Of a DNA stretch of 64,000 bases, positions 2,224-63,918 are shown one piece after another. The notes beneath the pieces are model-generated. The model saw only the letters and a list, made by a program, of their open reading frames with translations. It searched no databases and was not told the origin of the DNA. A program made the translations under genes and the position numbers. The stretch's first letter is position 1; each line of letters begins with the position of its first letter. The stretch spans positions 1 through 64,000 of the forward strand of contig JBBRLQ010000017.1 of NCBI GenBank assembly GCA_038231275.1. Direction: 5' to 3'. The DNA is from Polyangiales bacterium (GTDB lineage Bacteria; Myxococcota_A; Polyangia; Polyangiales; Polyangiaceae).

Positions 2224-2252
2224 CGCTCCGCGTCCGAGGGTACATTCTCCCC

Positions 2253-2888
2253 GTGCGAAAGTTGTTCTTTGCCGGCCTCGCGCTGCTCCCCTTCGCCGTG
2301 CTCGGCTCGGGGGCGTGCGGCGGCTCCAGCTCCAGCGGCGGCGGGAGCGGCGTCGACGCCGCGAGCCTCGTCGATCACTCGCGCATCGACGGCCCCGTGC
2401 ACGTCGCCGGTCCCTGCGAGATCACGATCGACGCCCCGGCGTTCTTGCCCGCCCTTCACGTCGCGATCGGCACGCACGTCGAGTACGACTCGAACCCGCC
2501 GTCGAGCGGTCCGCATTACCCAGTGTGGGCCGCCTTCCAGACGTGGAGCGCGCCGGTCGCGCGCGAGTACTACGTCCACGACCTGGAGCACGGCGCGATC
2601 GTCCTCCTCTACAAATGCGACACCGGCGACGGGTGCCCGAGCATCGCAGCCGGCCTCAAGAGCGTGGGCGACGCGGTGCCCGACGATCCGATCTGCGACA
2701 AGGCCACCGTGCGCGCGCGAATCGTCGTGACGCCCGATCCGCTCCTCGACGTCCCCGTCGCCGCGGCCGCGTGGGGCTGGACCTACAAAGCGAAGTGCCT
2801 CGACGTGCCGAGCCTCACGCAGTTCGCGAAAGATCACTACGGCCAGGGGCCGGAGCAAATCTGCGCGAACGGAACGACTGCGTTCTGA
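2253..2888 (+). CDS. DUF3105 domain lipoprotein
   Basis: YDSNPPSSGPHY, VHDLEHGAI and AAWG motifs; GTG start chosen just before the signal peptide and SGAC lipobox. Confidence 0.82.
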   Translation: MRKLFFAGLALLPFAVLGSGACGGSSSSGGGSGVDAASLVDHSRIDGPVHVAGPCEITIDAPAFLPALHVAIGTHVEYDSNPPSSGPHYPVWAAFQTWSAPVAREYYVHDLEHGAIVLLYKCDTGDGCPSIAAGLKSVGDAVPDDPICDKATVRARIVVTPDPLLDVPVAAAAWGWTYKAKCLDVPSLTQFAKDHYGQGPEQICANGTTAF

Positions 2889-2915
2889 CGCGAAGCGGTC
2901 AGCCTGACCCGCGGG

Positions 2916-3929
2916 TCAGCCCGGGTAGCCGACCATCTTGCCGGTCTCGGGATCCCAGAGCTTCTGCTGGAAGCAGGCGCGCACGTCCTTGAGGCGGAGG
3001 CTCGTCTTGTTCGTCGGCTGGAGCTCGGGCATGCCCGCCATCGCCTCGGGCAAACGGTAGAACGGGATGAGCGGGTTCAGGTGGTGCACGTGGTGCAGCC
3101 CGATGTTCCCCGTGAAAAAGGCCATGATCGGCCCCATCTCCATGTAGCTCGACGACTCCAGCGCCGCGCGCTCGAAGCTCCACGACTCGCGCGGCTGCAC
3201 GACCATGTCCGGGAAGTTGTGCTGCGCGTAGAAGAGGTACGCGCCCATCGCCATCGCGATCGCGAGCGGCAAGAAGAACGCGAAGACCCACACGAGCACG
3301 CCGAGCTTCCAGATGATCAGCGCCGTGAGGCTCCAGTTGAGGAGCACCGCGAAGCCCGCCGACCAGTTCTTCTTCGGCGCGCGCAGGAACGGCGACACGC
3401 CCAAGCCGAGCATGAAGATCGTGAAGTACCCGGTCGCGATCGTCAGCGGATGACGGATCAGGCGGTACATCGTGCGCTGGCTCGGCGTCATCTTCTCCCA
3501 CATCGCGGTCGTCACCATGATGTACGAGCCGATGTTCGAGCCGACGATCTTCGCCGTGTGGGCGTGATGGTAGTTGTGCGTGTCCCTCCACACCTTGGCC
3601 GGCGTCATGATGATGAGGCCGAAGACCCAGAAGAGCGCCTTTGCGATCTGCGACCGGCGCAGGATCGCGCCGTGCCAGTAGTCGTGGAAGAGAATGAAAC
3701 AGCGCACGATGACGAGGCCTGCGACCGTCGACGCCGTCGCGCGCATCGCCCACTCGAGCGGCGTGACGGACGGGCGCGCGGCGATCGCGATGGCGGAGCC
3801 GAGGAGCGCGAACGACGTGACCGTGTAGAGCACGCTGCGGGCGCGGCTCTCCACGGTGAAGGGCTTGGTCCTGCTGACCAGCGATTTGGCCTCACCTCGT
3901 CCTTCGATGCGCGCTTCTTCTTCGGCCAT
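2916..3929 (-). CDS. Membrane fatty acid desaturase
   Basis: Three His boxes HDYWH, HNYHH and HHVHH, plus FYAQH and IPFYRL; TM segments. Confidence 0.92.
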   Translation of the reverse strand: MAEEEARIEGRGEAKSLVSRTKPFTVESRARSVLYTVTSFALLGSAIAIAARPSVTPLEWAMRATASTVAGLVIVRCFILFHDYWHGAILRRSQIAKALFWVFGLIIMTPAKVWRDTHNYHHAHTAKIVGSNIGSYIMVTTAMWEKMTPSQRTMYRLIRHPLTIATGYFTIFMLGLGVSPFLRAPKKNWSAGFAVLLNWSLTALIIWKLGVLVWVFAFFLPLAIAMAMGAYLFYAQHNFPDMVVQPRESWSFERAALESSSYMEMGPIMAFFTGNIGLHHVHHLNPLIPFYRLPEAMAGMPELQPTNKTSLRLKDVRACFQQKLWDPETGKMVGYPG

Positions 3930-42230: not shown

Positions 42231-43286
42231 TCACATGAAGCTGCCCGATGCGCCCAGGACCAGGCCGGGAGCCCCGCCGGCAGGGCAGACCGCGGGAGCG
42301 CCTATATAAGGAAGGAGGACGCCGGACCTCCGAGGCGCGTCCGGAGCGCCGGTCGTCGCGAACAGCACGACCGTGACCACCGCGGAGGCCACCGTCGCGA
42401 GGCCGAGGACGTCGGTGACGACGGCCAACGTGCGGGTCTTGGTGCGGGCGCTCGCGACCTCGTCGGGCGTCGCGCCGAAGCGGTCTACGGTCTTGTCGTA
42501 GGTGCTCTTCTGCCCGAGGGCGAGCACGCCAACGACGCCGGTGCCGACGCCGAGCGCCCCTGTGACGGCCACGCCGATCCAAAATGGAGTGCGGCTCTTC
42601 GGCGGCGCGGCGACCCGCGCGGGCTCGGACGCGGGAGGCGACGGCGCGACGACGGGCGGGCGCGTTGCTGGCGGCGGAGGAGCGGCGGGGGGATGGAGCT
42701 CCAGCGAGACCTTCTTCTTGTCGCCGCCCGCGACGGTCACGCGCACCTCGGCAGGCTCGAGGCCAGTCTTCGTCGCGCGGAGCTTCCACTCCCCGCCGTT
42801 CAAGAGGATGGGCGCCGCCACCGGCGATTTTCCGAGATCGAGGCGCCGTTCCCCCTCGATCGTGACGTCGGCTCCGGTCTCATTCACCATTATCTCGACG
42901 CTGGCGACGTGCCCCTCGAGGCGCGCGAGATCCTTCTCGACCTCCGCGCGGCGGGCTTTGCCGAGCTCCGAGCCTCCTTGCGAGACGTATTCGCGGAACG
43001 ACTTCACCGCGCCCGCGAAATCGCCGAGCTCCTCGAACGTCTGCCCGATGTTGAACAGCAGCCGGAAATTCGGCGAGAGGCGATAGGCCTCCTGGAACTC
43101 CACGAGCGCAGAGCGGAAGTCGGCGTCCTTGTAGAACTTCACGCCGCGCTGGAAATGCTGCCGCGCGCTGGCGAGGGTGGCGGAGGGCGGAGCCTGCGCG
43201 CGCGCGCCCATGGGAACGAACGCGATCGCCATCGCGACGGAGAACGCGATGCGCGAGGCGAGAGACGCCGTCACTTTGCGCCCCAT
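42231..43286 (-). CDS. TPR + PEGA domain protein
   Basis: FQEAYRLSP..LLFNIG, PEGA (GADVTIEG..LGKSP), two C-terminal hydrophobic segments; start may be GTG at 43274. Confidence 0.85.
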   Translation of the reverse strand: MGRKVTASLASRIAFSVAMAIAFVPMGARAQAPPSATLASARQHFQRGVKFYKDADFRSALVEFQEAYRLSPNFRLLFNIGQTFEELGDFAGAVKSFREYVSQGGSELGKARRAEVEKDLARLEGHVASVEIMVNETGADVTIEGERRLDLGKSPVAAPILLNGGEWKLRATKTGLEPAEVRVTVAGGDKKKVSLELHPPAAPPPPATRPPVVAPSPPASEPARVAAPPKSRTPFWIGVAVTGALGVGTGVVGVLALGQKSTYDKTVDRFGATPDEVASARTKTRTLAVVTDVLGLATVASAVVTVVLFATTGAPDAPRRSGVLLPYIGAPAVCPAGGAPGLVLGASGSFM

Positions 43287-44890
43287 GGATCGTTCGTGTC
43301 GATCGGCTTGGTGGGCCGACGCGTGCGCGGATCGTCGGGAGCGACCGGAGGCTTCGGTAGACGCGGGCCCGTAGCCGGTCGCTCGGCCTGCAGCGAGAGC
43401 TCCAGACGAACGTCCCGATCGAGGACCAGCGTGCGCTGCTCGGGCGCGAAGCCAGGCGCCGCGACGCCCAACGCGTGGGTGCTCCGGTCGCGAGGGAGGC
43501 GCTTGGAGAACGGATTTCCGTCGACGGCGACGCCATCGAGCGTGAAATGCGCGGCTGCGGGGGTCGCGACGACGAAGACATCCACCGTCGGTGTGCTCGG
43601 CGTCGCGGAGACGTCACCGCTCGAAGCGACCGGGGGCGACGCGATCGACGCGGCGCTGGCGCTCGCGATCGGCTCGAGCGGTGGCCTGGAGCCGCGACGA
43701 AACGCGAACGTCGCCGCGCCCGCCAGCGCGATCGCGGCGAGCGCGCCCAGGACGACGACCCGACGCCGTGACGACGCGCGCGCCGCGCCGAGCTCGAGGC
43801 TGACCGAGGCCTGCGTCGGAGACGTGATCGTCGTGGCGGCGCCGTCGGCCGCGGTTCGCGTGGGATCGTTGTCGGACACGCCGCTCTCGGACGAAGGCGA
43901 CGGCGGCGGCAAGAGCGGTGTGGGGTGCGACGGCGCCGCGTCGGGCGACGCGAGGCGGTCCTGGATGAGGCGACGGACCTGCGAGCGCTCCTTCTCGAAC
44001 GCCCGCGCGACGAGCGCTCCGACGTCCGCGTCGGTGACCCGCATGCCCGCCTTCTCGATGAACGCGGCGAGCGCGCTCAGCATGTCCGCCGCCGTCGCGT
44101 ACCGGACCGCGCGATCGCTCGCCATCGCGCGATCGCAGATCGCCGCGAGCTCCGGCGGCGCGTCGGGCACCTCCGTCGCGATCTTGGGCTCGAGCCCGTT
44201 GATGCGCCGGTGCAAGATGGCCGGCTCCGCGAGATCGTGGGTGATGCGCCTCTTCGCGAGCGCCTCCCAGAGGAGGACGCCGACCGCGAAGACGTCGGCC
44301 CGCCGATCGATCGCGTCGTTGGCGATCTGCTCGGGCGCCGCGTAGCCGAGCTTGCCCTTGAAGACGCCGGTCTCCGTCTTAACCGCCGCTCCTTTGGCCT
44401 TCGCGATGCCGAAGTCGACGAGCTTGATCGCGCCGCCGTAGGTCAAAAATACGTTCTGCGGCGTCACGTCGCGATGGACGACGCCCAGCGGAGTGCCGGT
44501 GAGATCGGTCAGATCGTGCGCGGCGTGGAGCCCCGCGAGGATGCGCGTGAGGACGTGCAGCGTGATCGGCAACGGGAGCTGGCGCTTCGTGCGTCCGAGG
44601 ACGGCGCTGAGCGGCTGCCCATCCAGGTACTCCATGACGATGAAGTAGCGACCGTCCGCCTCGCCGACCTCGAAGCACTGCACGAGGTTCGGGTGCTCGA
44701 GGCGCGACACGAGGCGCGCTTCGTCGGTGAACATCGCGACGAAGTCCGGATCGATCGCCAGCTCCGGCAGGATCTCCTTGATGACGACGAGCTTCTGCGT
44801 CCCAAGCGCGCCCGGCAGCGCCGCGAGCGACACGCGCGCCATCCCCCCTTGCCCGAGGAGCGCGAGATCGCGGTAGCGCCCGAAGCTCAT
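43271..44890 (-). CDS. Membrane Ser/Thr kinase with PEGA-like extracytoplasmic domain
   Basis: LGQGGMARV, HRDVTPQN, DFG, YAAPE, TM and PEGA-like strands. Confidence 0.95.
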   Translation of the reverse strand: MSFGRYRDLALLGQGGMARVSLAALPGALGTQKLVVIKEILPELAIDPDFVAMFTDEARLVSRLEHPNLVQCFEVGEADGRYFIVMEYLDGQPLSAVLGRTKRQLPLPITLHVLTRILAGLHAAHDLTDLTGTPLGVVHRDVTPQNVFLTYGGAIKLVDFGIAKAKGAAVKTETGVFKGKLGYAAPEQIANDAIDRRADVFAVGVLLWEALAKRRITHDLAEPAILHRRINGLEPKIATEVPDAPPELAAICDRAMASDRAVRYATAADMLSALAAFIEKAGMRVTDADVGALVARAFEKERSQVRRLIQDRLASPDAAPSHPTPLLPPPSPSSESGVSDNDPTRTAADGAATTITSPTQASVSLELGAARASSRRRVVVLGALAAIALAGAATFAFRRGSRPPLEPIASASAASIASPPVASSGDVSATPSTPTVDVFVVATPAAAHFTLDGVAVDGNPFSKRLPRDRSTHALGVAAPGFAPEQRTLVLDRDVRLELSLQAERPATGPRLPKPPVAPDDPRTRRPTKPIDTNDPWGAK

Positions 44891-48772: not shown

Positions 48773-49783
48773 TTATGGCACGTACTGGCCGCTCTGGAGC
48801 CAGTTCATCGCGAGTGCCGTGACGAGGCTCGTGACGGCGATCGTGAGGCGCGCCTCCTGCTCGACGCTGTACGTGAGCTCCATCGCGTCCGCGCGCTCGG
48901 CGAGGAACTCGAGGAGCCACCGCGTGCGCTCGGGCAGGTGCCCGGTCCACTGGAAGACGCTCGCCGGCAGGTCGTGCTGGATGCGGCGAATGAGATCGCT
49001 CCCCGCGAGGCGCACGTTGCTCGCCTCGGTCTCGGTGAAGATGGTGCGGAGCATCTGCTCGAGCTCCGCCGGCCTCTCGTTCGAGGTGCCGACCACGCCC
49101 TTGTAGAACTGCTCGAGCGATATCGAGAGACCCGCCACGTCCTCGTCGAACTCCGCCTTCGTGATGAGCGGCTCGCGCTCGACGAGCTCCGACATGATCC
49201 GCGCGCAGTACTCGAGCTTGCGGAAGGCGCCGGGCCACTTGGCGAACTCCTTCCGCCAGTCCTGTCCCGGCGTGATCCAGATCGCGAAGGTCTCTGCCCA
49301 GTCTTCGTCGGGGTGTTTCTGCGCGTACCACCCGGGCAGGTGGTGCACGAACTCGCGGCTGAACGGGCGCGGGCGGTACTCGTCCTCGTACGGCTTATCC
49401 ATCGAGCCGAAGCGCTCCAGCCACTCCTTCGTCTCGTAGAGTTTGTAGGCGTAGTTCATGACGTGCCCCATCTCGTGGCGCAGGTACTTGAGGATGTCCT
49501 TCGGCCCAGAGCCCTCGACATGACACGCCTGCTCGGCCTGGAGCATCGTGAGCTCTGGCCGCGCGAGGTAGAACGGGATCGCGATGGCGATCGACTCGTA
49601 GGGCACGCCCCACTCGGTCGACAGATAGAAGCGCGGCTTGATGCGCGTGATGCCGGCGGCGATGATCTCGCGCTCGAACGCCTCGAGCACCGGCTCGAGC
49701 GCAGTGCCCTGGATCGTGAGGCCCAGATCGCGGATCGGGGTCGCGCGGCGCTGGCCGCCCTCGAACATGGCCGTCATCGTCAT
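48773..49783 (-). CDS. Putative zinc-binding metallopeptidase (zincin-like)
   Basis: LRHEMGH (HExxH) and WYAQKHPDEDWAETF; ATGA overlap with larC. Confidence 0.88.
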   Translation of the reverse strand: MTMTAMFEGGQRRATPIRDLGLTIQGTALEPVLEAFEREIIAAGITRIKPRFYLSTEWGVPYESIAIAIPFYLARPELTMLQAEQACHVEGSGPKDILKYLRHEMGHVMNYAYKLYETKEWLERFGSMDKPYEDEYRPRPFSREFVHHLPGWYAQKHPDEDWAETFAIWITPGQDWRKEFAKWPGAFRKLEYCARIMSELVEREPLITKAEFDEDVAGLSISLEQFYKGVVGTSNERPAELEQMLRTIFTETEASNVRLAGSDLIRRIQHDLPASVFQWTGHLPERTRWLLEFLAERADAMELTYSVEQEARLTIAVTSLVTALAMNWLQSGQYVP

Positions 49784-51147
49784 GGGACGGCTCCGAGCGC
49801 GGCGAGGGCGGCGCGAATGACCTCACGGACGGGGACGTTGTGCGCCTTGGCCGCGGCGACGCAGGCGTCGAACTCGGGCTTCACTTGAGGAGGGCCGAAC
49901 GGGCCGCCGGCGACCTTCACCGGGATGATGCCGAACGGGGTCGTGACGTCGCGTGTTTCGCGCGGCCGCTCAACGCGCGCGACGCCATGACGGCGCACCC
50001 CGAGGCTCGTCGTCTCGCGGATCATCGCGTGCGCGATCGCGTCGGCGCGGCCTTCGGTGGTGAGCGCGCTGAGCGTGAGCGCGGGGCGTCCCTTCTTCAT
50101 CGTGATGGGCGTCGCCCACACATCGAGCGCGCCCGCCTCCAGGAGCGACTCGATCGCGGCGGCGACGAGCTCTCCGGTCGCGTCGTCGATGTTCGCCTCG
50201 ATCACCGTGTGCGTGCCTTCGCCGCGCGACGCCTTCGCAGTGCTCTCGCCGAGGACCGCGCGGAGGAGGTTCGGTCGGTCGTTCAGGTTCGCGGTGCCGG
50301 CGCCCCAGCCGACGCGCTCGGGGGCGAGCTCGGGCCACCGCGACGAGCCGCGCGCGTTCGCGCCGACGATCGCGGCGCCGGTCGGCGTGACGAACTCGAA
50401 GTCGATCCCCCCGTCGTACGTCGGTAGACCACGCAAGCACTCGACCGTCGCGGGAGCAGGCAGCGGCAGGACTCCATGGCGCGCCTTCACGAAGCCGCGC
50501 CCCATCGGCAGGGGCGACACGACGAGCTCCGCGCCGATCCAGTCGAGCGCCGCCGCGCTGCCGACGATGTCGATGATCGCGTCGATGGCCCCGACCTCGT
50601 GGAAGTGCACGTCGTCGAGCGCCGAGCGGTGAACCTTGGCCTCGGCCTCCGCGAGACGCAAAAAGGCCTTCTCGGCACGCGCGCGCACGCCGTCCGAGAG
50701 CTTCGACTCGGCCAAAATTTGCTTGATTGCGCCGTACGTCCGCTCCGGCTGCGCGCCGTCCACGTGCACGTCGAACGACGCCGCGACGACCCCGCTCCGC
50801 ACGCGCGTACCGAAATGGATGTGGTACCCGGTCAAGGGCAACGCCGCCGCTGCCTCCGCCACGACGCTCTCCGGGACGCCCAGGTCGACCAGCGTAGCGA
50901 TGATCATGTCCCCCGCGAGCCCGCTCGGCGCGTCGAGGAATAGAACCTTCCCCTCCCCTTCCCCGCGCCGCAAATCCGGGCGCGCCGCCGCGCCTACGTG
51001 GTGATGCCCGTGGTCGTGCCCGTGCGCGTGAGCGTGGTCGTGATCATGATCATGACCGTGACCGTGACCATGACCATGACCATGACCATGACCATCGTCA
51101 TGGCCGTGCCCGCCCTCGTGATCGTGGTGGTGATGATCGTGTCCCAT
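49780..51147 (-). CDS. larC: Nickel-pincer cofactor nickel insertase
   Basis: [50 protein letters not shown] and KPEFD; His-rich N-terminus. Confidence 0.95.
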
Positions 51148-53264: not shown

Positions 53265-54617
53265 TCACATGACGAAGCGCAGCGTCGCGAGCGCAGACTT
53301 TTCACCTTGGTCCGGGGGACCGTTCTGAACCTGAATCCACGTGGCGAGGCGGGCGCCGATCGCGACGTGATCGGTGATCCAGTAGCTGGTGCCGAGGTTC
53401 AAATAGTGGAGCCGGGTCACGGCGCCACCGCCCACCTGGTACTGCACCTGCGTGTATTGGAGGCCCACGCCGTTCGCGCACCCGTACGTACACGTGAAGG
53501 GGTGGTCGTAGTTCAGATCGATGCCGCCGCCGAGGACGATGCCCGTGTACTTGTCCGGCGAGAGGCGGGCGACGTTGGCGGGATCGACCGTGTCGTTCTT
53601 CGTGAACGCGGCGTTGAAGAACGGGACGAGCAGCTCCTTCATGAGCTTGAGCCGCGCGTTGGCGCGCAGGTTGAACGCCCGGATGTTCTGGTCGTCGGTC
53701 TTCGTCGTGTCGGTGTCGATGACCGCGCCCTGGAACGCCGCCTTCGCATCGAACATCGGGCTCGTGTAGAGGATGCTCGGCGAGAGCATCATCATGTGGA
53801 AGCTGTCGTCGGGGAAGTTGTTCGCCGACTTGCCGATGTATTGGTACGGCTGCTCGTAGACGCGCGCGAACGGCGGGTAGGTGCCGCCGACCATCAGCGT
53901 GCCGGTGGTCGAGACCGGGTTGCCGGCGGTGAACGCGAGGCCGACGCGCAGGCCCTCGACGAGCTTGAACGTACCGCGCACGCCGTTGCCCATGTTGAGG
54001 CCGCTGTAGAGGAGCGGATCGCGCGTCGCGGTGTCCTGCAAGAAGACGTCGGCGACGTGCGCGGAGTAGTAGTCGACGCTAGCCTCGTCGGTGACGCGGC
54101 CGACCTCGATCATCGCCGGATCGATCGTGAGGCGCAGGAGCTGGTTTCGTACCTGGAGGGCCGCCTGACCTTCGTACGCGCTGGCGCCGTGGAGCGACGT
54201 GCCGCCGCTCGCCATGAGCTCGCTCTCGAACGAGATCCACGCGCCGGCCGAGCCGCGGAGGCCGAAGCGGCTGAGCGCGATCGCCGAGACGCGCGCCTCC
54301 TTGTGCTCGTTGGGGCCGTTCAGCGGGATGTCCGCCTTCACGCCGCCGACGACGCCGAGGAACGGCTCGATCTTGATCGCGGAGAGCGGGCTCTCCTTCT
54401 TCGGCTCGGGCTTCGGCTGCTCGTCGGCGTTGACGTCGGCCTTCGCGTCCGGCTTGGTATCCGGCTTCGCGTCCGGCTTGGTGTCGGGCTTCGTGTCGCC
54501 CTTCGTGCCCTCGGGCGTCTCGTCCTGCGTGCGGGCAGCGGCCTCGCGCGGAAGCATCGTCGTCATGGCGAGCACCGCGGCGGCGGCAACGCATCCTCGC
54601 AAACTTGTATTGTACAT
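53265..54617 (-). CDS. Putative outer-membrane porin-like beta-barrel
   Basis: Signal peptide, D[TA]KP repeats, many alternating amphipathic strands, terminal ATLRFVM strand. Confidence 0.62.
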   Translation of the reverse strand: MYNTSLRGCVAAAAVLAMTTMLPREAAARTQDETPEGTKGDTKPDTKPDAKPDTKPDAKADVNADEQPKPEPKKESPLSAIKIEPFLGVVGGVKADIPLNGPNEHKEARVSAIALSRFGLRGSAGAWISFESELMASGGTSLHGASAYEGQAALQVRNQLLRLTIDPAMIEVGRVTDEASVDYYSAHVADVFLQDTATRDPLLYSGLNMGNGVRGTFKLVEGLRVGLAFTAGNPVSTTGTLMVGGTYPPFARVYEQPYQYIGKSANNFPDDSFHMMMLSPSILYTSPMFDAKAAFQGAVIDTDTTKTDDQNIRAFNLRANARLKLMKELLVPFFNAAFTKNDTVDPANVARLSPDKYTGIVLGGGIDLNYDHPFTCTYGCANGVGLQYTQVQYQVGGGAVTRLHYLNLGTSYWITDHVAIGARLATWIQVQNGPPDQGEKSALATLRFVM

Positions 54618-54621
54618 ATTC

Positions 54622-56031
54622 CTACTTCGTCTTTCGTGAGCGACGGCGAAGCGCAGCGAGACCGAGCAACGCACAAGCACCAGAACCGAATCCAAAGGCC
54701 CCCGGCCTGGGCGCGCGCGCGCCGATGGCGCAGCCCGCGAGGGCGCCCGCCCCGTCGCCCGGCGAAGCTCCTGCGCCGGAGTCCGCGCCGCCGCCGGTCG
54801 AGCCGGACGTGCCGCTCGATGACTTGCCGCTCGACCCGCTCGACCCGCTCGATCCGCCGTAGCCACCGCCGCCCGGCGTCGCGTCGTGCGCGGTGTCGGG
54901 ACCGGCATCCTTGGGTCCGCCGCCGTCGCCGCCGGCCTCGCCGCCGCCGTCACCGCCGGTGCTGCCGTCCGTGCCGGAGTCGGTGTCCGCGTCGGTGCCG
55001 CCATCGATCACATCGGCCGGCGTCACGCCGAAGAACGCGAGCGCGTGAGAGGCGCCGCAGATCTGCGCGTCGATGAAGTACGAGCCGGTCGCGCCGCAGC
55101 CGCTCGCCGGATCGACGAAGAGGCCGTGGTCCTTTCCGGTGATTGCGAACGTCTCGACGACCGCGCCGGAGGTCCCGGCGTAGACCGCGTGCGGGTAGCC
55201 GCCGACGGTGTCGGTCCTCGACGGCGTTTGCCCAACACCGTTCACGTCGGTCCACTGGCGCATGAGCGCCGTCGTGTTGGACGGGTCGACGGTGCCGTCG
55301 GCGGTTCCTTGCCAGATCGAGAGGCGCGGCCACTTGCCGGAGTAGCTGGGGTTCGCAGCGCGCACGAGATCGCCCCACGCCTTGGCGGACTGGTCCTTGC
55401 CAGGCTTGATGCAGGCGTTCGCGCCGCTGACCGACTCGGTGCAGTCGTACGGGATGCCGGAGAACGTCGCTCCGGCGGCGAAGACGTCCGGCCAGGTCGC
55501 CAGCATGAGCGCCGCCTCGGCGCCGCCCGACGAGAAACCGACGACGAAGACCTTGGCCGGATCGATCGAGAAGTCCGACTTCATCTTGTCGACCATCTGC
55601 TTGATCGACAGGTTCTCGCCCTGCCCGCGCTTCACGTTGGTGGCGTCGAACCAGTTGAAGCAGCGGAGCGCGTTGTTCGCCGTCGTCTGCGCGGGGTAGA
55701 CGACGTGGAACTTGTAGGTGTCGGCGAGGCCGTCGAAGCCGGCGTTCACCATGTCGGCCGCGGTCTGCGCGCATCCGTGGAGCACGAGGACGAGCGGCGC
55801 GTTCGAGCCGACCCCCGACGGGACGTAGCGGTACATGTCGAGGCCGCCGGGGTTCGACCCGAAGCCGCCGACCTGCTCGAGCGCCGCGAGCTTTAGGCCG
55901 GCGCCCGTCGTCGTCGCGTTCTCGGCCGCTGCGCCGGCGCTGCACGCGCCGACCGCGAGCCCGAGCCCGACGCACACCGCTCCCGTCGCGGCCGTGAGGG
56001 CGACCGCCTTGCCCATCGTGAGGTGTCGCAT
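54622..56031 (-). CDS. PHB depolymerase family esterase 3 with MYXO-CTERM-like tail
   Basis: LHGCAQ, CFNWF, GFSSG, WQGTAD and DHG; VGAC lipobox; tail AGC-hydrophobic-RRRSR. Confidence 0.9.
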   Translation of the reverse strand: MRHLTMGKAVALTAATGAVCVGLGLAVGACSAGAAAENATTTGAGLKLAALEQVGGFGSNPGGLDMYRYVPSGVGSNAPLVLVLHGCAQTAADMVNAGFDGLADTYKFHVVYPAQTTANNALRCFNWFDATNVKRGQGENLSIKQMVDKMKSDFSIDPAKVFVVGFSSGGAEAALMLATWPDVFAAGATFSGIPYDCTESVSGANACIKPGKDQSAKAWGDLVRAANPSYSGKWPRLSIWQGTADGTVDPSNTTALMRQWTDVNGVGQTPSRTDTVGGYPHAVYAGTSGAVVETFAITGKDHGLFVDPASGCGATGSYFIDAQICGASHALAFFGVTPADVIDGGTDADTDSGTDGSTGGDGGGEAGGDGGGPKDAGPDTAHDATPGGGGYGGSSGSSGSSGKSSSGTSGSTGGGADSGAGASPGDGAGALAGCAIGARAPRPGAFGFGSGACALLGLAALRRRSRKTK

Positions 56032-56038
56032 GGGGTTC

Positions 56039-57229
56039 CTAGTTGGTGAGCGCGGCCATCACTTGCTTGAGGCCGTTCTCGCTACGGACCGCGCCGTAGT
56101 GATTTTTGAACGCGCCGCCGACGAAGTAACAAGAGGTGTCGACGTCCGCGAGCGTGACGGTGAGGTTGTTCGCGCCCTTGAGCGTCGCGCTCCCTTGCGA
56201 CACGAACTCGTCCTGGAGCGTCGCCGGGGGCGGCGGATCCTGCATGACGATCGTGACGTAGCTGACCTTGTTGCCGCCGCACACGCCGGCCTGGCCATAC
56301 GCGGTGTTGCCGTCGGCGCACGGCGTCTCGTAGGCGCCGTCGGGGCCGTTGTTGGGGATCGAGAACGGCGTCGGCGTGAACGCGGTGCGATCGCCCATCT
56401 CGCAGGTGACGCGGCCGCGCATCGTGGGGTTCGACGCGCAGAGCGCGCGGAAGCTGGAGACGCCGTGGTTCGCGCCGGACGCAAGGAGAAGCGTCTTGAT
56501 GCGCTCGAACGGCTTCTTCCCCGCGCGGTGGAGGCGGCGGAGCGAGTCACGGATGACGGTCGGGCCGAGCGAGAAGCCGACGATCGAGAACTTGCGGGTC
56601 GGATAGGCCGTCATCATCGAGTCGATGAAGTGCGCGAGGATCGGCACGTACCAGCCGTGGTCGATGTTGCGTCCGGCGTTCTCGGTGGCGTTGTTGCCCG
56701 TCGGGTCGTCGTTCTTGTCGATGCGTGCGTCGACGGCGAAGACCTTGAAGCCGGCGCCGAGGAGCCGCTCCGACAGCATGGGCGTCGGCGGGTTCGGCGG
56801 CGCGACGGGGGGAGTACCGCATGGCGCGGTCGACGTGTTCATCTCGTAGTCGGCGGGCGTCGACGAGTTGCCGTGCACGAGGAGGACGATCGGCTTGCTC
56901 GTGTCCTCGTTCGGCTGCGGGTACTCCTTCGCGGCGCACTTGTAGCCGGGGATGACGGCGGGCGTGTACTGGTTCGCGTTGGTCGCGCCGGCGGGGCGCG
57001 CCGAGAGGCCGTCGGTCGTGCACCCGGGGTGCTTCGTCAGATCCTCGCGGTATTGGATCGCGTCGGCGTTCGTGGTGTTCGCGGCGGGATCGCTCCCGCC
57101 CGCGTCGCCCACCGGTGGCGGCGTCGTGGTCCCGCCGTCGGTGGCGGAGGCGGTCTGCGTGAGGCACGCACCGCTCGTGAGCGCGATGAGGCCAGCCAAT
57201 GCAATACGTGCAGAATACATTATGGTCAC
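56039..57229 (-). CDS. Lipase-like alpha/beta-hydrolase lipoprotein
   Basis: SGAC lipobox, LLVHGNS, GFSLG, GANHG, DEFV and C-terminal NHY. Confidence 0.82.
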   Translation of the reverse strand: MTIMYSARIALAGLIALTSGACLTQTASATDGGTTTPPPVGDAGGSDPAANTTNADAIQYREDLTKHPGCTTDGLSARPAGATNANQYTPAVIPGYKCAAKEYPQPNEDTSKPIVLLVHGNSSTPADYEMNTSTAPCGTPPVAPPNPPTPMLSERLLGAGFKVFAVDARIDKNDDPTGNNATENAGRNIDHGWYVPILAHFIDSMMTAYPTRKFSIVGFSLGPTVIRDSLRRLHRAGKKPFERIKTLLLASGANHGVSSFRALCASNPTMRGRVTCEMGDRTAFTPTPFSIPNNGPDGAYETPCADGNTAYGQAGVCGGNKVSYVTIVMQDPPPPATLQDEFVSQGSATLKGANNLTVTLADVDTSCYFVGGAFKNHYGAVRSENGLKQVMAALTN

Positions 57230-58551
57230 TTTCCCGTTTTCCGTGAACGACGACGCGTGACGGCGAGGCCGACGAGCGCGCCAAAACCGCCAAATCCAAG
57301 ACCGCCGAAACCGGCGCGTGTCTGTGTGCTTCCGATCGAGCAGCCCGCGAGGCCGGAGCCCTGCGGGGTGCCTCCGCCGAAGACGCCTGCGTCGCCCCCC
57401 GCTCCTGCGTGCGGCGGAGTTGCTCCGGCGCCGCTTGTCCCGCTGCTTCCCCCGCCGTACCCGCCGCTGCCCGGCTTGCCGGCGTCGTGAACGGCTCCCG
57501 AGCTTCCGCTCGAACCGCCCGCGCCGTCGACGCCGCCGTCGACCGCCGCCTCCGCCGCGCCGATGCCGAAGAAGCCGGCGACGAGCTGCGCAGAGCAGAT
57601 CTTCGCGTCGAGGACGTACGCCGCCGCGGTGCCGCAGCCGCCCGCCGGATCGACGAAGATGCCGTGGTCCTTGCCGGTGATCGCGTACGTCTCGACGACG
57701 ACGTTGCCCGCAGAGTCCTTGTACGTGTCGTGCGGGTAGCTCTGGACGGTGTCACTTGCGGACGGCGTTGAAGGCGCGCCGTGTACGTCGGTCCACTGGC
57801 GCATCAGCTCCTTGGTGTTCGACGGATCGACCGTCGCGTCGGAGGTGCCCTGCCAGATCGAGAGACGAGGCCACGCGCCCGTGTAGCTGCTGTTGGCGGC
57901 GCGAACGAGGCTTCCCCAGGTCTTGGCGTCCTGATCTTTGCCGGGCTTCATGCACGACGACGCGCCGGCGACCGATTCCGCGCAGTCGTACGGGATGCCG
58001 CCGAACGTCGCGCCGGCCGCGAAGACGTCGGGCCACGTCGCGAGCATGAGCGCGGCCTCGGCGCCGCCCGACGAGAAGCCGACCGCGAAGACGCGCTTCG
58101 GATCGACCTGGACGTCGGCCTTCATCTTGTCGACCATCTCCTTGATCGACTGGTTCTCGCCCTGGCCGCGCTTCAAGTTCGCCGGGTTGCCGTAGACGCC
58201 GGCCCAGTTGAAGCACTTGTAGGGGTTGTTGGCCGTCGTCTGCTCCGGGTAGACGACGGTGAACTTGTACTTGTCGGCGAGCGTGTTCCAGCCGGCGTTG
58301 ACCATGTCGACCGCGCCTTGCGTGCAACCGTGCATCAGCACGACGAGCGGCGCGTTCGGGCCGACGCCGGCGGGCACGTAGCGGTACATGACGAGGCCGG
58401 CGGGGTTGGTGCCGAAACCGGTGACCTGCTCGAGGCCGCTCGCCGTGACGGTGAGCGCTTCTGCGCCCCGCGTGACGTCGAGGGTGGAGTCGGTGGCGTC
58501 CGCGCATCCGACGAGTGCGACGGCGCCGGCGAAGAGGAGACCGAGCTTCAT
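57226..58551 (-). CDS. PHB depolymerase family esterase 2 with MYXO-CTERM-like tail
   Basis: LVGC lipobox, MHGCTQ, CFNW, GFSSG, WQGTSD and DHG; tail AGCSIG-hydrophobic-RRRSR; ATGA overlap. Confidence 0.9.
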   Translation of the reverse strand: MKLGLLFAGAVALVGCADATDSTLDVTRGAEALTVTASGLEQVTGFGTNPAGLVMYRYVPAGVGPNAPLVVLMHGCTQGAVDMVNAGWNTLADKYKFTVVYPEQTTANNPYKCFNWAGVYGNPANLKRGQGENQSIKEMVDKMKADVQVDPKRVFAVGFSSGGAEAALMLATWPDVFAAGATFGGIPYDCAESVAGASSCMKPGKDQDAKTWGSLVRAANSSYTGAWPRLSIWQGTSDATVDPSNTKELMRQWTDVHGAPSTPSASDTVQSYPHDTYKDSAGNVVVETYAITGKDHGIFVDPAGGCGTAAAYVLDAKICSAQLVAGFFGIGAAEAAVDGGVDGAGGSSGSSGAVHDAGKPGSGGYGGGSSGTSGAGATPPHAGAGGDAGVFGGGTPQGSGLAGCSIGSTQTRAGFGGLGFGGFGALVGLAVTRRRSRKTGK

Positions 58552-60917
58552 CGCGCGCCACCCTTCCGCGCGCGCGCGCGGCGGCCGAGGACGAGGACCA
58601 CGCCGAGTGCACCCCAGATCGCCTCGAGGTTGCCGGCTCCGACCGCGCATCCCGACGACGACCCGGACCCCGAGCCCGAGCCCGAGCTCGATCCCGACGA
58701 CGACCCCGAACCCGACTCCGAACCCGAGCCTGATCCCGACGCCGAGCCGGTGAGGCCGAAGAACTCGGCGATTTTTTGGGTCGAGCAGAGCTTCACGTCG
58801 AGCGCGTAGGCGCCTGCCGTTCCGCAGCCGTTCGCGGGATCGAGCGGAACGCCGTGGCCCATGCCCGGCACCGCGTACATTTCGACGGCGACCGCACCCT
58901 TCGCGTCGCGCCACTCGGAGCGCGCTGCACCGGACACCGTGCTCGTCGCGCTGGGCGCATCGGCGGCGCCGTGCACGCCGGCCCACTGCTTCGCGATCTC
59001 CTTCTCGTTCGCCGGCGCGACGATCGCGTCGCTGGTTCCTTGCCACACGCTCACGCGCGGCCACGTGCCGGCGTAGCCCGGGTAGGCAGAGCGAACGCGA
59101 TCCGCCCAGTCTTTCGCGGTCAGCGTCTTGCCGGGGTTCATGCAGGTATACGTATCGAGGGGGCTCGTCGCGCAGTCGTAGGGAAGGCCCGCGATCGGTG
59201 CGCCCGCGGCGAAGACGTCCGGCCACATCGCGAGCATGAGCGCGGTCTCGGCGCCGCCGGCGGAGAGGCCGGTGACGAAGACGCGCTTGCCGTCGATGCT
59301 GGCGTCGGCTTTCATCTTGTCGACCATCTGCTTGATCGACGCGTTCTCGCCCTTGTCGCGCGCGAGGCCGGCGCCGTACCAGGTGAAGCAGCGCATCGCG
59401 TTGTTGGTGGTCGACTGCTCGGCATAGACGACGTGGAAGGCGTACTTGTCGGCGAGCTCGTTCCAGCCGACGTTCGCGTAGTCGGCGGCGGTCTGCGTGC
59501 AGCCGTGGAGCGCGACGACGAGCGGCGCATTGGCCTTCGCGTTCGCGGGGCTGTGGCGGAACATCTTGAGGCCGGCCGGGTTCGCGCCGAAATTCGTGAC
59601 CTCGACGAGCGCGCCGCCCGCGTGGGCGGTGCCGCCGAGGGCGAAGAAGAGCGCTACGGCGAGCGTGGTCGCGGTGGCGGCCTGCGCGAGGCGCAACGTC
59701 GCGCGCATGAAGCCGCGCGTCGAGAGGAGCAGCGTCGCGACGCCGAGGAGCGCGACGCCGCTGACCATCGCGATGGCGAAGGCGATCGACGTATGGCCCA
59801 GGCGGGCGACGGCGGCGATGATCATCGGGATGAACGCCGCGACCGACGAGCCCACGTGGTAGACGAGGCCGATGCTGCGCGCCCGCGTCTCGGGCGGGAA
59901 CAGATCGGTCAGCAGCATCGGCGTCACGCCGCAGACGCCCGCGCCGAAGAGGCCGGTCGCGAAGGCGCCGACGCCGAGGAGCGCAGGCGACGCGCCGACG
60001 TAGAAGGCGAGGAACGGCAGCGCGAGGAGCGCAGGCGTGGCGATGGCGACCGCCGCGCCGTGACGCGAGGCGATGAAGCCCGAGCCTATCGAGCCGATGA
60101 GCATGCCGGTCGTGAAGAGCATCACGAGGTGCGCGACGCCCTTGTCGGTCATGCCGAGCTCGGTGACGAGCATCGTCGGGTAGAGGCCGGTGAGGCCGTT
60201 GTAGGCGCTGAAGCCGACGATCATGGCGGCCGAGCCCCAGAGGATCGGACCGAGCGCGGCGCGCGGCGCCTTGATCTTGGAGACCGACGCCGTCGCGGCC
60301 TTGAGCTTCTCGTGGGCCTTCGTCCACGCGTCGCTCTCCGGGACCCATGCGCGAATCGGAAGGACCATCAACGCGGGGAGGGCCGCGAGGACGAAGAGGC
60401 CACGCCAGCCGTAGTGCGGAATGACGTAGCCGGCGGCGACCGCGGCCAGCATGTAGCCGATGGCCCAGCTGCCCTGGAGGACACCCGACGCGATGCCGCG
60501 GCTACGGGTCGGCCAGCTCTCCATCGCGAGCGCGGTGCCGCTCGCCCACTCGGCGCCCATCCCGAACCCGAAGAGGGTGCGGAGGACGAGCACCCAACCG
60601 AACGTCGGCGCCAGCGCGATCGCGCCGTCGAACACCGCGAACGAGATGATCGAGAGCATCAGCGGGAGCTTTCGCCCCCAGCGGTCCGCGGCCCAGCCGG
60701 CGAGGACGCCGCCCGCGAGGCGCGCGAGATAGGTCAGCGCGAGCGAGCCGGTCGTCGCGAACGTCTCGACGCCCATCTCCTTCGCGATGTGCGGCATCGC
60801 GAGCAGAAAGACGGTGAAGTCGAACGCGTCGAGCACCCACCCGAACCACGCTGCGCTGAACGCGAGCCACTGCGCGCGCGTCGGCTCTTTCCACCACGGT
60901 TGATTGCTGGTCGCCAT
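58548..60917 (-). CDS. MFS carboxylate permease (NanT/JEN1-like) fused to PHB depolymerase family esterase 1
   Basis: GWVLDAFDF, ADRWGRK, GMGAEW and LQGSWAIGY, then in frame LHGCTQ, GLSAG, WQGTSD, GMGHG and a GC-hydrophobic-RR tail. Confidence 0.88.
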   Translation of the reverse strand: MATSNQPWWKEPTRAQWLAFSAAWFGWVLDAFDFTVFLLAMPHIAKEMGVETFATTGSLALTYLARLAGGVLAGWAADRWGRKLPLMLSIISFAVFDGAIALAPTFGWVLVLRTLFGFGMGAEWASGTALAMESWPTRSRGIASGVLQGSWAIGYMLAAVAAGYVIPHYGWRGLFVLAALPALMVLPIRAWVPESDAWTKAHEKLKAATASVSKIKAPRAALGPILWGSAAMIVGFSAYNGLTGLYPTMLVTELGMTDKGVAHLVMLFTTGMLIGSIGSGFIASRHGAAVAIATPALLALPFLAFYVGASPALLGVGAFATGLFGAGVCGVTPMLLTDLFPPETRARSIGLVYHVGSSVAAFIPMIIAAVARLGHTSIAFAIAMVSGVALLGVATLLLSTRGFMRATLRLAQAATATTLAVALFFALGGTAHAGGALVEVTNFGANPAGLKMFRHSPANAKANAPLVVALHGCTQTAADYANVGWNELADKYAFHVVYAEQSTTNNAMRCFTWYGAGLARDKGENASIKQMVDKMKADASIDGKRVFVTGLSAGGAETALMLAMWPDVFAAGAPIAGLPYDCATSPLDTYTCMNPGKTLTAKDWADRVRSAYPGYAGTWPRVSVWQGTSDAIVAPANEKEIAKQWAGVHGAADAPSATSTVSGAARSEWRDAKGAVAVEMYAVPGMGHGVPLDPANGCGTAGAYALDVKLCSTQKIAEFFGLTGSASGSGSGSESGSGSSSGSSSGSGSGSGSSSGCAVGAGNLEAIWGALGVVLVLGRRARARKGGAR

Positions 60918-61080: not shown

Positions 61081-61575
61081 TCAGGGGAAACAGAAGGTCG
61101 CGAAGCCGGCGTCGGGATCGACGAGGCAGCCCGGCGCGACGCCGCTGCACCCGCCGGCCGGCGGGCACGGCAGTGTGCACTTCGACGCTTTCCATGCGGC
61201 GATCGCGTTCGTATACGTGATCACGTTCTGCGCGGAGGCGTCGTCGACGTACGTGTCGCAGTCGCACTGGTCCTTGAGCTTCACGCCGCAGAAGGAGATG
61301 CCCTGCTGGCACTTTTTCGCGGGGCCGCGCGCGGCGACGACGGCGGCCTGGAATGCAGGGCAGTTTGGCGCCGTATCGGGGCCGGCGTCGACGGGCGGCG
61401 GCGCGTCGACCCGGACGTCGGCGATGGCGTCGGTCCCGGGGCGATCGACGAGGGACGCGTCCGTCGGGGCGTCGGTCGCCGCATCGAAGGACGCGCTGCC
61501 CACGGGCCATTGATAGGTGCACGCCGAGAAGCTCACGAGGAGCCCCGCGAAAAGCAGCCGATCGCGGCGCGACAT
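61081..61575 (-). CDS. Cys-rich lipoprotein
   Basis: FSAC lipobox, D/A/P linker, about ten Cys; AAGGAG RBS. Confidence 0.72.
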   Translation of the reverse strand: MSRRDRLLFAGLLVSFSACTYQWPVGSASFDAATDAPTDASLVDRPGTDAIADVRVDAPPPVDAGPDTAPNCPAFQAAVVAARGPAKKCQQGISFCGVKLKDQCDCDTYVDDASAQNVITYTNAIAAWKASKCTLPCPPAGGCSGVAPGCLVDPDAGFATFCFP

Positions 61576-61645
61576 CTCCTTTTGGAGACCACAAACCCGG
61601 CGGCCAGGCAAGCGCCGGACGTGCCCGATGTGCTAGGTTCCGCGC

Positions 61646-62640
61646 GTGTCAGCCGTACGGCACGCCGCCGCCCTCGCGACCGCGCTCGCGCTTTTTGTCG
61701 GGTCGCCGTGCGTGTTGGCGCAGGCGCCGGACATGCACGAGCAAGCGCGCGCGCACTACGACATGGGCACCGGCGCGTACGTGCGCGCGGACTACAAGAC
61801 CGCGGCGCAGGAGTTCGCTCTCGCCGACCGGATGAGCCCGAGCACCGTCGCCCTCTCGGCCGCGCTCGACGCGGCGATCCAGGCCGAGCTCGCGCCGCTC
61901 GCGATGGAGCTCGTGCAACGCTCCGCGCGCGGCCCGGTCGACGCCTCGCTCTCGGTGCTCATCGTCAGGGCGCGCGCACGCTTCGCCAAGCGCGTCGGTC
62001 GCGTGAAGGTCACGTGCACGCCTGCTCCGTGCACCGCGAAGCTCGACGGAGCGGCCATCGAGCTCGACAAGGATCAGTTCGCGTGGGTCGGCAAGCACAC
62101 GATCACGCTCGAGCGGGCCAGCGGCGCGAGCGAGCGCCCGGTGGACGTCACGCCAGAGGGCCGCGCGGAAATTTTCGTCGGCGCGGATGCGATCGGACCG
62201 ACTCCGACTCCGACTCCGACTTCGACTCCGACCCCGACTTCGACTCCGACTCCGACTCCGACTCCGACTCCGACTCCGACGCCGACTCCGACGCCGACGC
62301 CGACTCCGAGCGACTCCGGTCTCTCCCCCGTCGTCTTCTTCCTCGGCGTGGGCATCACGGCTGTACTCGGCGGCGCGACGATCGCCTCCGGCATCGACAC
62401 GTCGAAGAAGCACGACGACTATTTTTCTGCGCACTGCGACACGATCACGCGACCAGACTGCTCGTCGAAGTCGTCGGATGGAATCGCCGCGCAGCACCGC
62501 ACGAACATTCTGCTCGGGGTCACCGCCGCCGCCGCGATCACGACGGCGGTGATCGGCATCGCGTTCACGCGCTGGCGGTCGAGTGTCTCGGCCCAGGTCG
62601 TCGGCAGCGCGGCCACCGCGCAGCTGCGCGTCACGTGGCC

Positions 62641-62644
<4 letters not shown>
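61646..62644 (+). CDS. TPR + PEGA-like protein with PT linker and C-terminal hydrophobic helices
   Basis: Signal peptide, TPR (AAQEFALADRMSP), PEGA-like strands, two hydrophobic segments. Confidence 0.8.
62198..62308 (+). repeat. Hexamer tandem repeat encoding PT/ST linker
   Basis: About 18 CCGACT-type units with TCGACT variants. Confidence 0.9.

Positions 62645-63918
<1,274 letters not shown>

Follow-up and report, generated by a model that had tools for sequence, protein, structure and literature searches.

An MFS permease fused in frame to a secreted-type esterase through an internal signal peptide in a Polyangiales bacterium: most likely a self-resolving polyprotein

We analysed a stretch of 64,000 nucleotides (nt) from a Polyangiales bacterium, a myxobacterium from sediment (GenBank assembly GCA_038231275.1, contig JBBRLQ010000017.1, positions 1 to 64,000; the whole stretch is here called the window), in which a single gene joins a membrane transporter to an esterase of a secreted type. 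The comparisons described below indicate that the fusion of a transporter with a secreted enzyme through a signal peptide of the cleavage type is genuine, conserved and recurrent, and that it is most likely a polyprotein that resolves itself. The main new result is a lipobox at the joint in most relatives and its replacement by an A-x-A motif in the others. This lipobox, further partners fused to the same or another transporter and the operon context had gone unnoticed in the preliminary description of this DNA, which was made from the sequence alone.

The fused gene and its conservation

The gene (58548..60917, minus strand) is one frame of 789 amino acids (aa), started by ATG and without an internal stop. 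Five parts follow each other along the chain: a permease, a signal-like segment, an esterase domain, a Gly/Ser linker and a tail composed of a Cys, a transmembrane (TM) helix and Arg residues (Table 1). Over the whole frame the G+C content at third codon positions (GC3) is 0.92. The preliminary description had reported this stop-free frame, to which the strand is now added, and had read it as an in-frame fusion of a major facilitator superfamily (MFS) permease to a poly(3-hydroxybutyrate) (PHB) depolymerase through a signal-like segment; both points are confirmed here.

Among 41 related genomes searched, G001, a member of the same genus, has the whole protein (residues 1-789) at 82% identity and without stops. 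In G002, also of this genus, residues 1-488 are read in frame up to the end of a contig and residues 490-785 stand at the start of another one. The fusion is seen in all three genomes of the genus, and in another genus (G022) residues 3-745 were found at 55% identity within a frame of 861 aa. Eleven further clusters of a protein collection carry both Pfam domains (50-64% identity, 91-96% query coverage). Searching with the permease alone among longer proteins gave 33 long forms at E <= 1e-40, 14 with the depolymerase-type partner (type A) and 19 with another hydrolase (type B, see below). Most of these relatives are metagenomic.

The joint is also supported by separately assembled DNA. A Logan contig of 3321 nt from run X1 (possibly the source sample) spans 58400-60746, differing in one letter and free of gaps, and contigs from two runs of another study (X2 record 11, X3 record 20) cover 59458/59460-59750 at about 92% identity, again without gaps. 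This support from sequencing runs consists of assembled contigs; short apparent joints arising from Gly/Ser-coding DNA and from paralogues were ignored. The preliminary description had considered that close homologs might all be split genes, or that a stop or an indel might turn up at the junction. Neither was observed: homologs spanning both halves are widespread (the three genomes of the genus, G022 and 14 clusters), and the contigs pass the junction uninterrupted. The same architecture in independent assemblies lies far beyond chance, and the fusion is neither an assembly error nor a recent stop loss.

The permease half matches MFS_1 of Pfam (PF07690, residues 24-362, 3.6e-43, 148.3 bits versus a cut-off of 33.4) and belongs to the MFS. 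Its best-scoring MFS model is TIGR00891 for sialate:H+ symport (231.8 bits, below the cut-off of 552.9); the aromatic acid:H+ symporter model is matched as well (156.7 bits, below cut-off), and homologues are labelled 'SHS family lactate transporter' by the Joint Genome Institute (JGI). This suggests a resemblance to the SHS family, with scores short of the curated cut-off for membership. Hydropathy agrees with 12 helices before residue 400; the script printed overlapping segments, and this crude result was used qualitatively only. TM12 lies at about residues 380-398, and after it comes a short basic loop, STRGFMRATLR. Hydroxy-acids of the lactate type are the cargo of SHS relatives, and the substrate in our case is probably also a hydroxy-acid, 3-hydroxybutyrate or its short oligomers. 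An uncharacterised SHS-type permease would so be linked to extracellular polyester breakdown and become a candidate 3-hydroxybutyrate importer.

In the esterase half the model of type-1 extracellular short-chain-length polyhydroxyalkanoate (scl-PHA) depolymerases, NF050058, is matched over its full length (profile positions 1-276 of 276, residues 443-720) at 292 bits versus a cut-off of 150. TIGR01840 gives 229.3 bits (cut-off 107.85) and Esterase_PHB of Pfam covers residues 456-659 (2e-30). H471, S552 (in GLSAGG), D630 and H688 are invariant in all 13 aligned type A sequences; these we take to be the catalytic residues, as presumed for the family. Both the full match to the catalytic domain and the order oxyanion His (LHGC), GLSAGG, Asp, His are as in the extracellular type-1 depolymerases. 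Six cysteines (C473, C510, C582, C592, C698, C711) are invariant in the same 13 sequences, which fits with an oxidising, extracytoplasmic location. Classical type-1 PHB depolymerases have a C-terminal substrate-binding domain. In the fused esterase, by contrast, a Gly/Ser linker and a Cys-TM-Arg tag form the end, and Pfam and NCBIfam profile searches detected no C-terminal PHB-binding domain. The nearest solved relatives in a sequence search of PDB are a feruloyl esterase (8iy8, 2.4e-38) and an acetylxylan esterase (5x6s, 2.2e-31), besides an esterase of the 'PHB depolymerase family' (8daj, 3e-32). From the family models we infer a PHB-hydrolysing activity. A complex prediction of the permease (residues 1-403) with the esterase (434-757) returned ipSAE values of 0.01 and 0.00 and gave no answer either way.

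The tail consists of Cys757, a hydrophobic stretch (758-778) and the end RRARARKGGAR, and has the layout of MYXO-CTERM sorting signals. A Cys-TM-Arg tail is kept in 14 of the 15 complete type A proteins. The CTERM-like tail of the preliminary description holds as far as this layout is concerned, but not by its score on the MYXO-CTERM model TIGR03901, which is below the cut-off. Only two of seven tails tested pass this cut-off (P0005 with 21.4 and P0003 with 21.0 bits); P0011 and P0006 reach 17.6 and 8.5 bits, and P0010 and P0002 give no score. The authors of this model call it short and divergent (10.1101/2023.06.07.544157).

An observation of its own concerns the DNA of the Gly/Ser linker at 58640-58750, which has repeated units of the GAGCC/CGACC type. 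The summed contig depth there is 80-597, compared with about 10-40 nearby, in all four runs. This peak is cross-mapping of low-complexity linkers from many genes and not copy number.

The joint and its signal-peptidase motifs

Both halves are connected by M404-A433, a segment of 30 residues (MRATLRLAQAATATTLAVALFFALGGTAHA) with its ATG at 59708-59706. It is composed of an n-region (MRATLR), an h-region (LAQAATATTLAVALFFAL) and a c-region (GGTAHA), and by inspection reads as a Sec type I signal, MRATLR / LAQAATATTLAVALFFAL / GGTAHA-G, in an internal instead of an N-terminal position. The site of signal peptidase I (SPase I) is predicted between A433 (59619) and G434 (59618), AHA-GG. The Sec-type signal with its AHA site and own ATG at 59708 was thus correctly recognised in the preliminary description; cleavage there is a prediction.

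Between relatives the joint cannot be aligned in sequence, yet its build is uniform. In all fused relatives 2 to 5 Arg/Lys occur within the 12 residues after TM12, then comes an uncharged stretch and then a signal-peptidase motif. We compared 16 type A sequences (the 14 clusters, G001 and the partial G002). In 12 of them the motif is a lipobox, [G/A/S]-Cys behind 13-17 uncharged residues, for instance LPLAS-C-SD, LLLGG-C-GE, LALVA-C-GV or LALS-C-AA; a polar linker of about 20-40 residues follows before the conserved ..VT.FG.NP. The remaining four, which lack a lipobox at the joint, have an A-x-A without Cys (AHA-GG in the window, ARA-AA in G001, AQA-AG in G002, AFA-LD in P0123), and here the conserved strand EVT.FG.NP begins within a few residues. 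In type B the joint Cys is kept in all 19 clusters, followed by L/M-T/V-S. Lipoboxes were called by inspection together with a looser rule, since a strict pattern in PROSITE style overlooked true sites having Pro at -4 and matched a conserved Cys of TM12 (..AGACE..). The internal lipobox is the most surprising feature of these proteins and the one easiest to test.

Within the window's genus the residues at -3 and -1 are kept in all three species and the one at -2 varies (AHA, ARA, AQA), as the -3/-1 rule predicts. The three species are close kin and were counted as one observation. A fragment with 67% identity, P0138, has the lipobox LFGC-S, and so has P0002, the closest full-length outgroup, which forms a clade with the window and G001. 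Therefore, it is most likely, judged from these sequences, that the genus exchanged a type II site for one of type I.

Free-standing relatives of type-1 depolymerases carry Sec signals of type I or II, as the joint does, with the difference that in the fusion the signal sits behind a 12-TM permease and not at the N-terminus. Of 49 rows of free-standing esterase homologues (including the G002 fragment and one 5'-truncated row) 27 have a lipobox and a long linker; most others have an A-x-A and then directly EVTGFGSNP, as in P0112 (AQA-AGLEEVTGFGTNP). In a larger set of 86 rows lacking a lipobox, again with the G002 fragment among them, the Phe of FG.NP stands at +7 to +12 after the last A.A in 56 rows. 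As a rough estimate, the probability that an A.A ends 7-10 residues ahead of this Phe by chance is 0.126 for the window protein (P0001), 0.068 for P0123 and 0.067 for P0165, a fusion with another transporter (see below). An A.A at a fixed place in three independent lineages makes a chance origin unlikely. The fused joints copy the geometry of the ordinary N-terminal signals of their free-standing homologues. Taken together, the motif kept at an otherwise unalignable joint, the short uncharged stretches and the tail all suggest processing.

Processing of the chain and competing explanations

The preliminary description had offered three options: a transporter with a tethered hydrolase, a polyprotein split by signal peptidase, and a recent loss of the stop codon with internal initiation retained. 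The second is best supported by the kept motifs and tails, and on balance we favour it: signal peptidase would divide the chain into an importer, which retains the signal as TM13, and an esterase that is sorted to the surface. One chain would leave the ribosome, consisting of a 12-helix SHS-type MFS symporter, a Sec-type signal, a PHB-depolymerase-type esterase and a MYXO-CTERM-like tail. MFS proteins with 12 helices end in the cytoplasm. For this reason the signal would have to insert with its N-terminus inside and its C-terminus outside, as a 13th helix that carries the esterase across the inner membrane, and the C-terminal helix would re-anchor the chain with its Arg-rich end inside, following the positive-inside rule. 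SPase I would then cut after A-H-A433; in most relatives Lgt and LspA would act at the lipobox Cys instead. The permease would retain the signal as an extra helix, and the freed esterase would be trimmed at its C-terminal Cys tag by myxosortase and moved to the surface via a type II secretion system (T2SS). There it could reach insoluble polyester, and the permease could import the hydroxy-acid released. Since such a polyester can presumably be attacked only from the surface, release from the inner membrane would be needed. The fusion itself may have been born by stop loss between adjacent, coupled genes and be tolerated, or favoured for 1:1 co-production, as the joint resolves itself. It is from sequence that we infer topology, cleavage, surface sorting and both substrates.

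Processing genes are present in the genome. A myxosortase core gene is present (NF040914, 147.8 bits versus a cut-off of 100; G000 C38), as are LspA (two copies), SPase I (three) and GspD (two), all above their cut-offs. A 3-hydroxybutyrate dehydrogenase was found too (321 bits, cut-off 307); for acetoacetyl-CoA synthetase there was no match in the genome above cut-off.

Several points weigh against this reading. Lgt reaches only 105.6 bits, below its curated cut-off of 118.9, in an assembly that is 94% complete, and the window's tail scores 8.6 bits on TIGR03901 (cut-off 20). A-x-A is common in Ala-rich proteins such as this one (17.7% Ala), and the genus provides three species that do not count as independent. 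The uncharged stretch of the window's segment is long (24 residues, L410-A433) and could serve as a signal anchor that stays uncleaved. With immediate separation of the halves, some other cause, such as stoichiometry or a neutral ratchet, has to be assumed for the long retention of the fusion. The substrate assignment rests on family models, and the nearest solved structure is a feruloyl esterase. Finally, no report of an internal lipobox or of an internal lipoprotein signal behind a polytopic protein was found in the open-access literature.

The length of the uncharged stretch, sufficient to span a membrane, leads directly to the idea of a tethered enzyme, in which the signal-like segment stays uncleaved as TM13, the C-terminal helix is a second anchor, and the periplasmic esterase splits soluble 3-hydroxybutyrate oligomers at the mouth of the importer (substrate channelling). 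Retention of the fusion over a long divergence would fit with this, as it suggests that the linkage itself is useful; so would the mere six or so residues between AHA and the first conserved strand in the window, and the ABC importers OpuA and GlnPQ are known to have permanently fused extracytoplasmic domains. However, a tether leaves the lipobox Cys (in 12 of 16 joints of type A and in all 19 of type B) and its A-x-A replacement unexplained, and gives no reason for the conserved Cys of the C-terminal tag (14 of 15). Moreover, P0004, P0005, P0121, P0002, P0003 and P0010 have only 13-15 uncharged residues before the Cys, a length typical of a signal peptide and small for a stable helix. We regard a tether as rather unlikely. 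The tether reading would include a division of labour, in which the free paralogues PhaZ2 and PhaZ3 release the oligomers at the surface; their lipoprotein signals and their place in the same operon make such a role possible and add to its appeal. A different doubt concerns the substrate and leaves the architecture as it is: the enzyme might be a feruloyl or acetyl-xylan esterase of the CE1 type or a general polyesterase, and the permease might import an aromatic or other carboxylate. In favour of this one may cite the best solved relatives (8iy8 and 5x6s, beside 8daj), the match of the permease to the aromatic acid:H+ symporter model (below cut-off, as given above) and the failure of Pfam and NCBIfam to find a C-terminal PHB-binding domain. 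On the other hand, NF050058 is matched end to end at nearly twice its cut-off, the permease is matched best by the SHS (sialate/lactate) group and the genome has the 3-hydroxybutyrate dehydrogenase, which together make another substrate improbable.

The third option of the preliminary description, a recently lost stop with the esterase made mainly from the start at 59708 and the full-length chain as a by-product, draws on an in-frame ATG located precisely where the signal peptide begins, both in the window and in G001. It finds no support in the relatives: Met404 is replaced by Thr in the congener G002 and is missing in most fused relatives, which are as distant as 50-64% identity. The 19 nt upstream of this ATG pair with the anti-Shine-Dalgarno sequence at only -1.7 kcal/mol, a value surpassed by 59% of 779 in-frame windows and by the next gene (-7.6), and without a stop the ribosomes on the permease must read on anyway. 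Internal initiation is therefore very unlikely. Even less credence is due to an artefact or pseudogene, with two frames joined by faulty sequencing or assembly or in a decaying gene. One could think of it because the assembly is of the metagenome type (164 contigs) and because stop codons are rare at 69.5% G+C, so that long open frames arise easily. But the same joint recurs in the three genomes of the genus, in G022, in 14 clusters and gap-free in the contigs of the other study, invariant family residues are kept in both halves, and the GC3 is high; this explanation can practically be dismissed.

Signal-peptidase polyproteins and transporters with fused outer domains are the company in which the fusion belongs, as a variant. 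The cytochrome b/c1 precursor FbcH of Bradyrhizobium is reportedly a polytopic protein with an internal signal peptide and a periplasmic domain, whose chain is split by signal peptidase. Unlike FbcH, which provides subunits of one respiratory complex and has a type I site only, the present chain combines an importer with a secreted hydrolase, and most relatives have a type II site. In OpuA and GlnPQ the chain of the membrane transporter includes a substrate-binding domain that remains joined to it; the outer domain of the present chain is instead an enzyme, equipped with a cleavage motif and a sorting tag, and its transporter belongs to the MFS. No paper on a fusion of an MFS protein with a PHB depolymerase was found in the open-access literature, nor was one on bacterial signal-peptidase polyproteins in the part of it that was searched.

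For MYXO-CTERM proteins such as TraA of Myxococcus xanthus, cleavage by myxosortase (MrtX) and display via the T2SS are described, and 35 of 35 M. xanthus members have N-terminal signal peptides (PMC11980579). Hydrolases are frequent among the known MYXO-CTERM proteins. Our protein is similar in its tripartite tail, and the myxosortase core gene and GspD are present in its genome; it differs in the internal position of its signal and in the score of its tail. The LprG-Rv1410 pair of mycobacteria, an operon of a lipoprotein and an MFS protein for lipid export, shows a likewise conserved pairing of an MFS protein with a lipoprotein, which acts at the membrane's outer face. There the two are separate genes, and the accessible text mentions no natural fusion (PMC6519032), in contrast to the single chain for an enzyme and the uptake of its product described here.

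These proteins are a natural test case of whether Lgt/LspA and SPase I can process a signal that follows an entire polytopic protein. Provided that the polyprotein reading is correct, they would offer the first natural example of a lipoprotein processed at an internal lipobox after a permease of 12 helices, and a built-in 1:1 production of an exo-enzyme and the importer of its product. The design of importer, cleavable signal, enzyme and surface tag could be copied for engineered strains that degrade bioplastic. The fusion also illustrates a harmless way in which genes of an operon that encode exported proteins can be joined. At present such proteins are annotated by one half only, as 'MFS transporter' or as 'PHB depolymerase family esterase', which skews the counts of transporters and secreted enzymes in Myxococcota.

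Other fusions, the gene cluster and neighbouring genes

The type B clusters (757-830 aa) combine a permease of 55-62% identity with an internal signal and a lipase-like alpha/beta hydrolase. This hydrolase is a homologue of LipX, a free-standing lipoprotein encoded in the window (62% identity to the C-terminal half of P0023, E 3e-155), and in a joint alignment the lipobox Cys of LipX and the internal Cys of all 19 type B fusions fall into one invariant column. Cys22 and Ser220, the latter surrounded by G-F-S-L-G, are invariant in 20 of 20 sequences (LipX and type B). LipX has no Pfam match and no sequence match in PDB, neither as a single protein nor as a profile; its feature neighbours in an atlas, the Lipase_2/DUF676 families, provide a lead only. 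It may be a second kind of polyesterase. In a permease tree of 67 rows, made by a quick method, types A and B together with three unfused proteins form one clade (support 98), in which type B is a single branch (99) and the window, G001 and P0002 are another clade (99).

An exhaustive search of 1.84 billion representatives yielded two more forms. P0130 (705 aa) has the same MFS permease, an internal lipobox LLLCGC-SDRD and then a Cys-rich domain of about 270 residues without Pfam match; a relative of this third partner was looked for among the window genes and none was found. In P0165 a sodium:solute symporter (PF00474, 3.9e-36) is followed by ..RPAHA-AGTFEEVTGFGGNP, a depolymerase domain (269.6 bits), three Ig-like repeats (Big_7) and a Cys-TM-basic tail. 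Together with P0273 and P0274 it makes up three metagenomic clusters of this symporter-esterase fusion (1161-1164 aa, joint ..RPAHA-AG.., 82-100% identity), seen on 1, 22 and 8 contigs. With its transporter of a different superfamily this fusion reads as convergent.

A separate case was noted at one locus of a single genome (L015; G212:C47:207600-211800, ORF 1744-3714 on the plus strand). A PHB depolymerase lipoprotein with a MYXO-CTERM-like tail (MPGCSV..ALALGRRRARGR) continues in frame into a second signal, AVLGALAAVGVLLAATPARA-DDEDD, and a beta-barrel-like domain ending in ..GLDIVYAF. A comparison of this domain with the last gene of the window's operon showed no relationship.

Chances appear about even that Polyangia repeatedly weld genes for transporters and exported proteins at joints that resolve themselves, cut by LspA (after Lgt), SPase I and myxosortase, with the signal kept as helix 13. 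The cases observed are MFS with PHB depolymerase, MFS with lipase-like lipoprotein, MFS with a domain of unknown kind, symporter with PHB depolymerase and, in one genome, PHB depolymerase with a beta-barrel-like domain.

In the window the fusion heads a tightly packed cluster on the minus strand, followed by PhaZ2, LipX, PhaZ3 and a secreted protein of 450 aa. The ATG of PhaZ2 overlaps the stop of the fusion as ATGA (58548-58551) and has a Shine-Dalgarno match (free energy -7.6), and the start of LipX overlaps the stop of PhaZ2 as GTGA (57226-57229). Such overlaps of 4 nt between successive genes are a sign of translational coupling. The feature neighbours of the 450-aa protein are first Myxococcota hypotheticals and then porin families; it may be an outer-membrane beta-barrel or porin and a possible channel of the system. 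A longer call of 579 aa for this ORF runs into PhaZ3 and is probably mistaken. One cluster would so provide enzymes at the surface, a possible channel in the outer membrane and an importer in the inner membrane.

Unfused arrangements exist in relatives. G226 has depolymerase, permease and LipX, and the permease stop and the LipX start overlap as ATGA. In G212 the permease is followed by a 15-nt spacer with GAAGGAG and then by a depolymerase lipoprotein; in G015 permease and depolymerase are divergently transcribed. The depolymerase is directly upstream of the permease in G226, G300, G271 and G187, as seen in a search of 301 genomes of the order with a stricter first look, 16 of which had a match at E <= 1e-100. 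The occurrence of several fused and unfused arrangements points to a functional link of permease and esterase, and each fusion has the look of a stop lost between neighbouring, coupled genes.

Table 1. Features of the fused gene, its cluster and the flanking region in the window (positions are those of the window)
Feature	Position	Strand	Basis or remarks
Whole fused ORF (open reading frame), P0001	58548..60917	-	789 aa; TGA stop at 58548-58550 included
MFS permease, residues 1-403, 12 TM helices, SHS/lactate-transporter-like	59709..60917	-	Pfam, NCBIfam, hydropathy
Putative internal signal peptide / 13th hydrophobic segment, M404-A433	59619..59708	-	Sequence inspection
Type-1 extracellular scl-PHA (PHB) depolymerase-type catalytic domain, residues 443-720	58758..59591	-	NF050058, TIGR01840
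Presumed oxyanion His471	59505-59507	-	LHGC motif
Lipase-box Ser552 in GLSAGG	59262-59264	-	Invariant
Asp630	59028-59030	-	Invariant
His688	58854-58856	-	Invariant
Gly/Ser-rich linker, residues 722-756	58650..58754	-	Low-complexity DNA
MYXO-CTERM-like sorting tail, residues 757-789	58551..58649	-	Cys757, hydrophobic helix, Arg-rich end
PhaZ2, free-standing paralogue, lipoprotein MKLGLLFAGAVALVGC-A, same kind of tail	57226..58551	-	NF050058, 293.5 bits
LipX, lipase-like alpha/beta-hydrolase lipoprotein, ..TSGAC-LTQ..	56039..57229	-	Homologue of type B partner
PhaZ3, third paralogue, lipoprotein, Cys-TM-Arg tail	54622..56031	-	Follows LipX in the cluster
Last cluster gene, 450 aa from M at 54617, signal peptide, KPDT/KPDA repeats	53265..54617	-	Lead only
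Small lipoprotein rich in Cys; synteny with the permease kept in 4 relatives	61081-61611	-	Flanking
TPR-like secreted protein, long Thr-Pro repeat	61646-62644	+	Flanking
Ser/Thr protein kinase	62800-63918	+	Flanking
Ser/Thr protein kinase	43271-44890	-	Flanking

Two of the flanking genes, those of the small lipoprotein and of the TPR-like protein, are syntenic in G001, G002, G022 and G015. Unrelated to the fusion is a gene for a LarC-type nickel insertion protein at 49780-51147 on the minus strand (PF01969, 4.5e-125), which adjoins the gene of a putative Zn metallopeptidase at 48773-49783.

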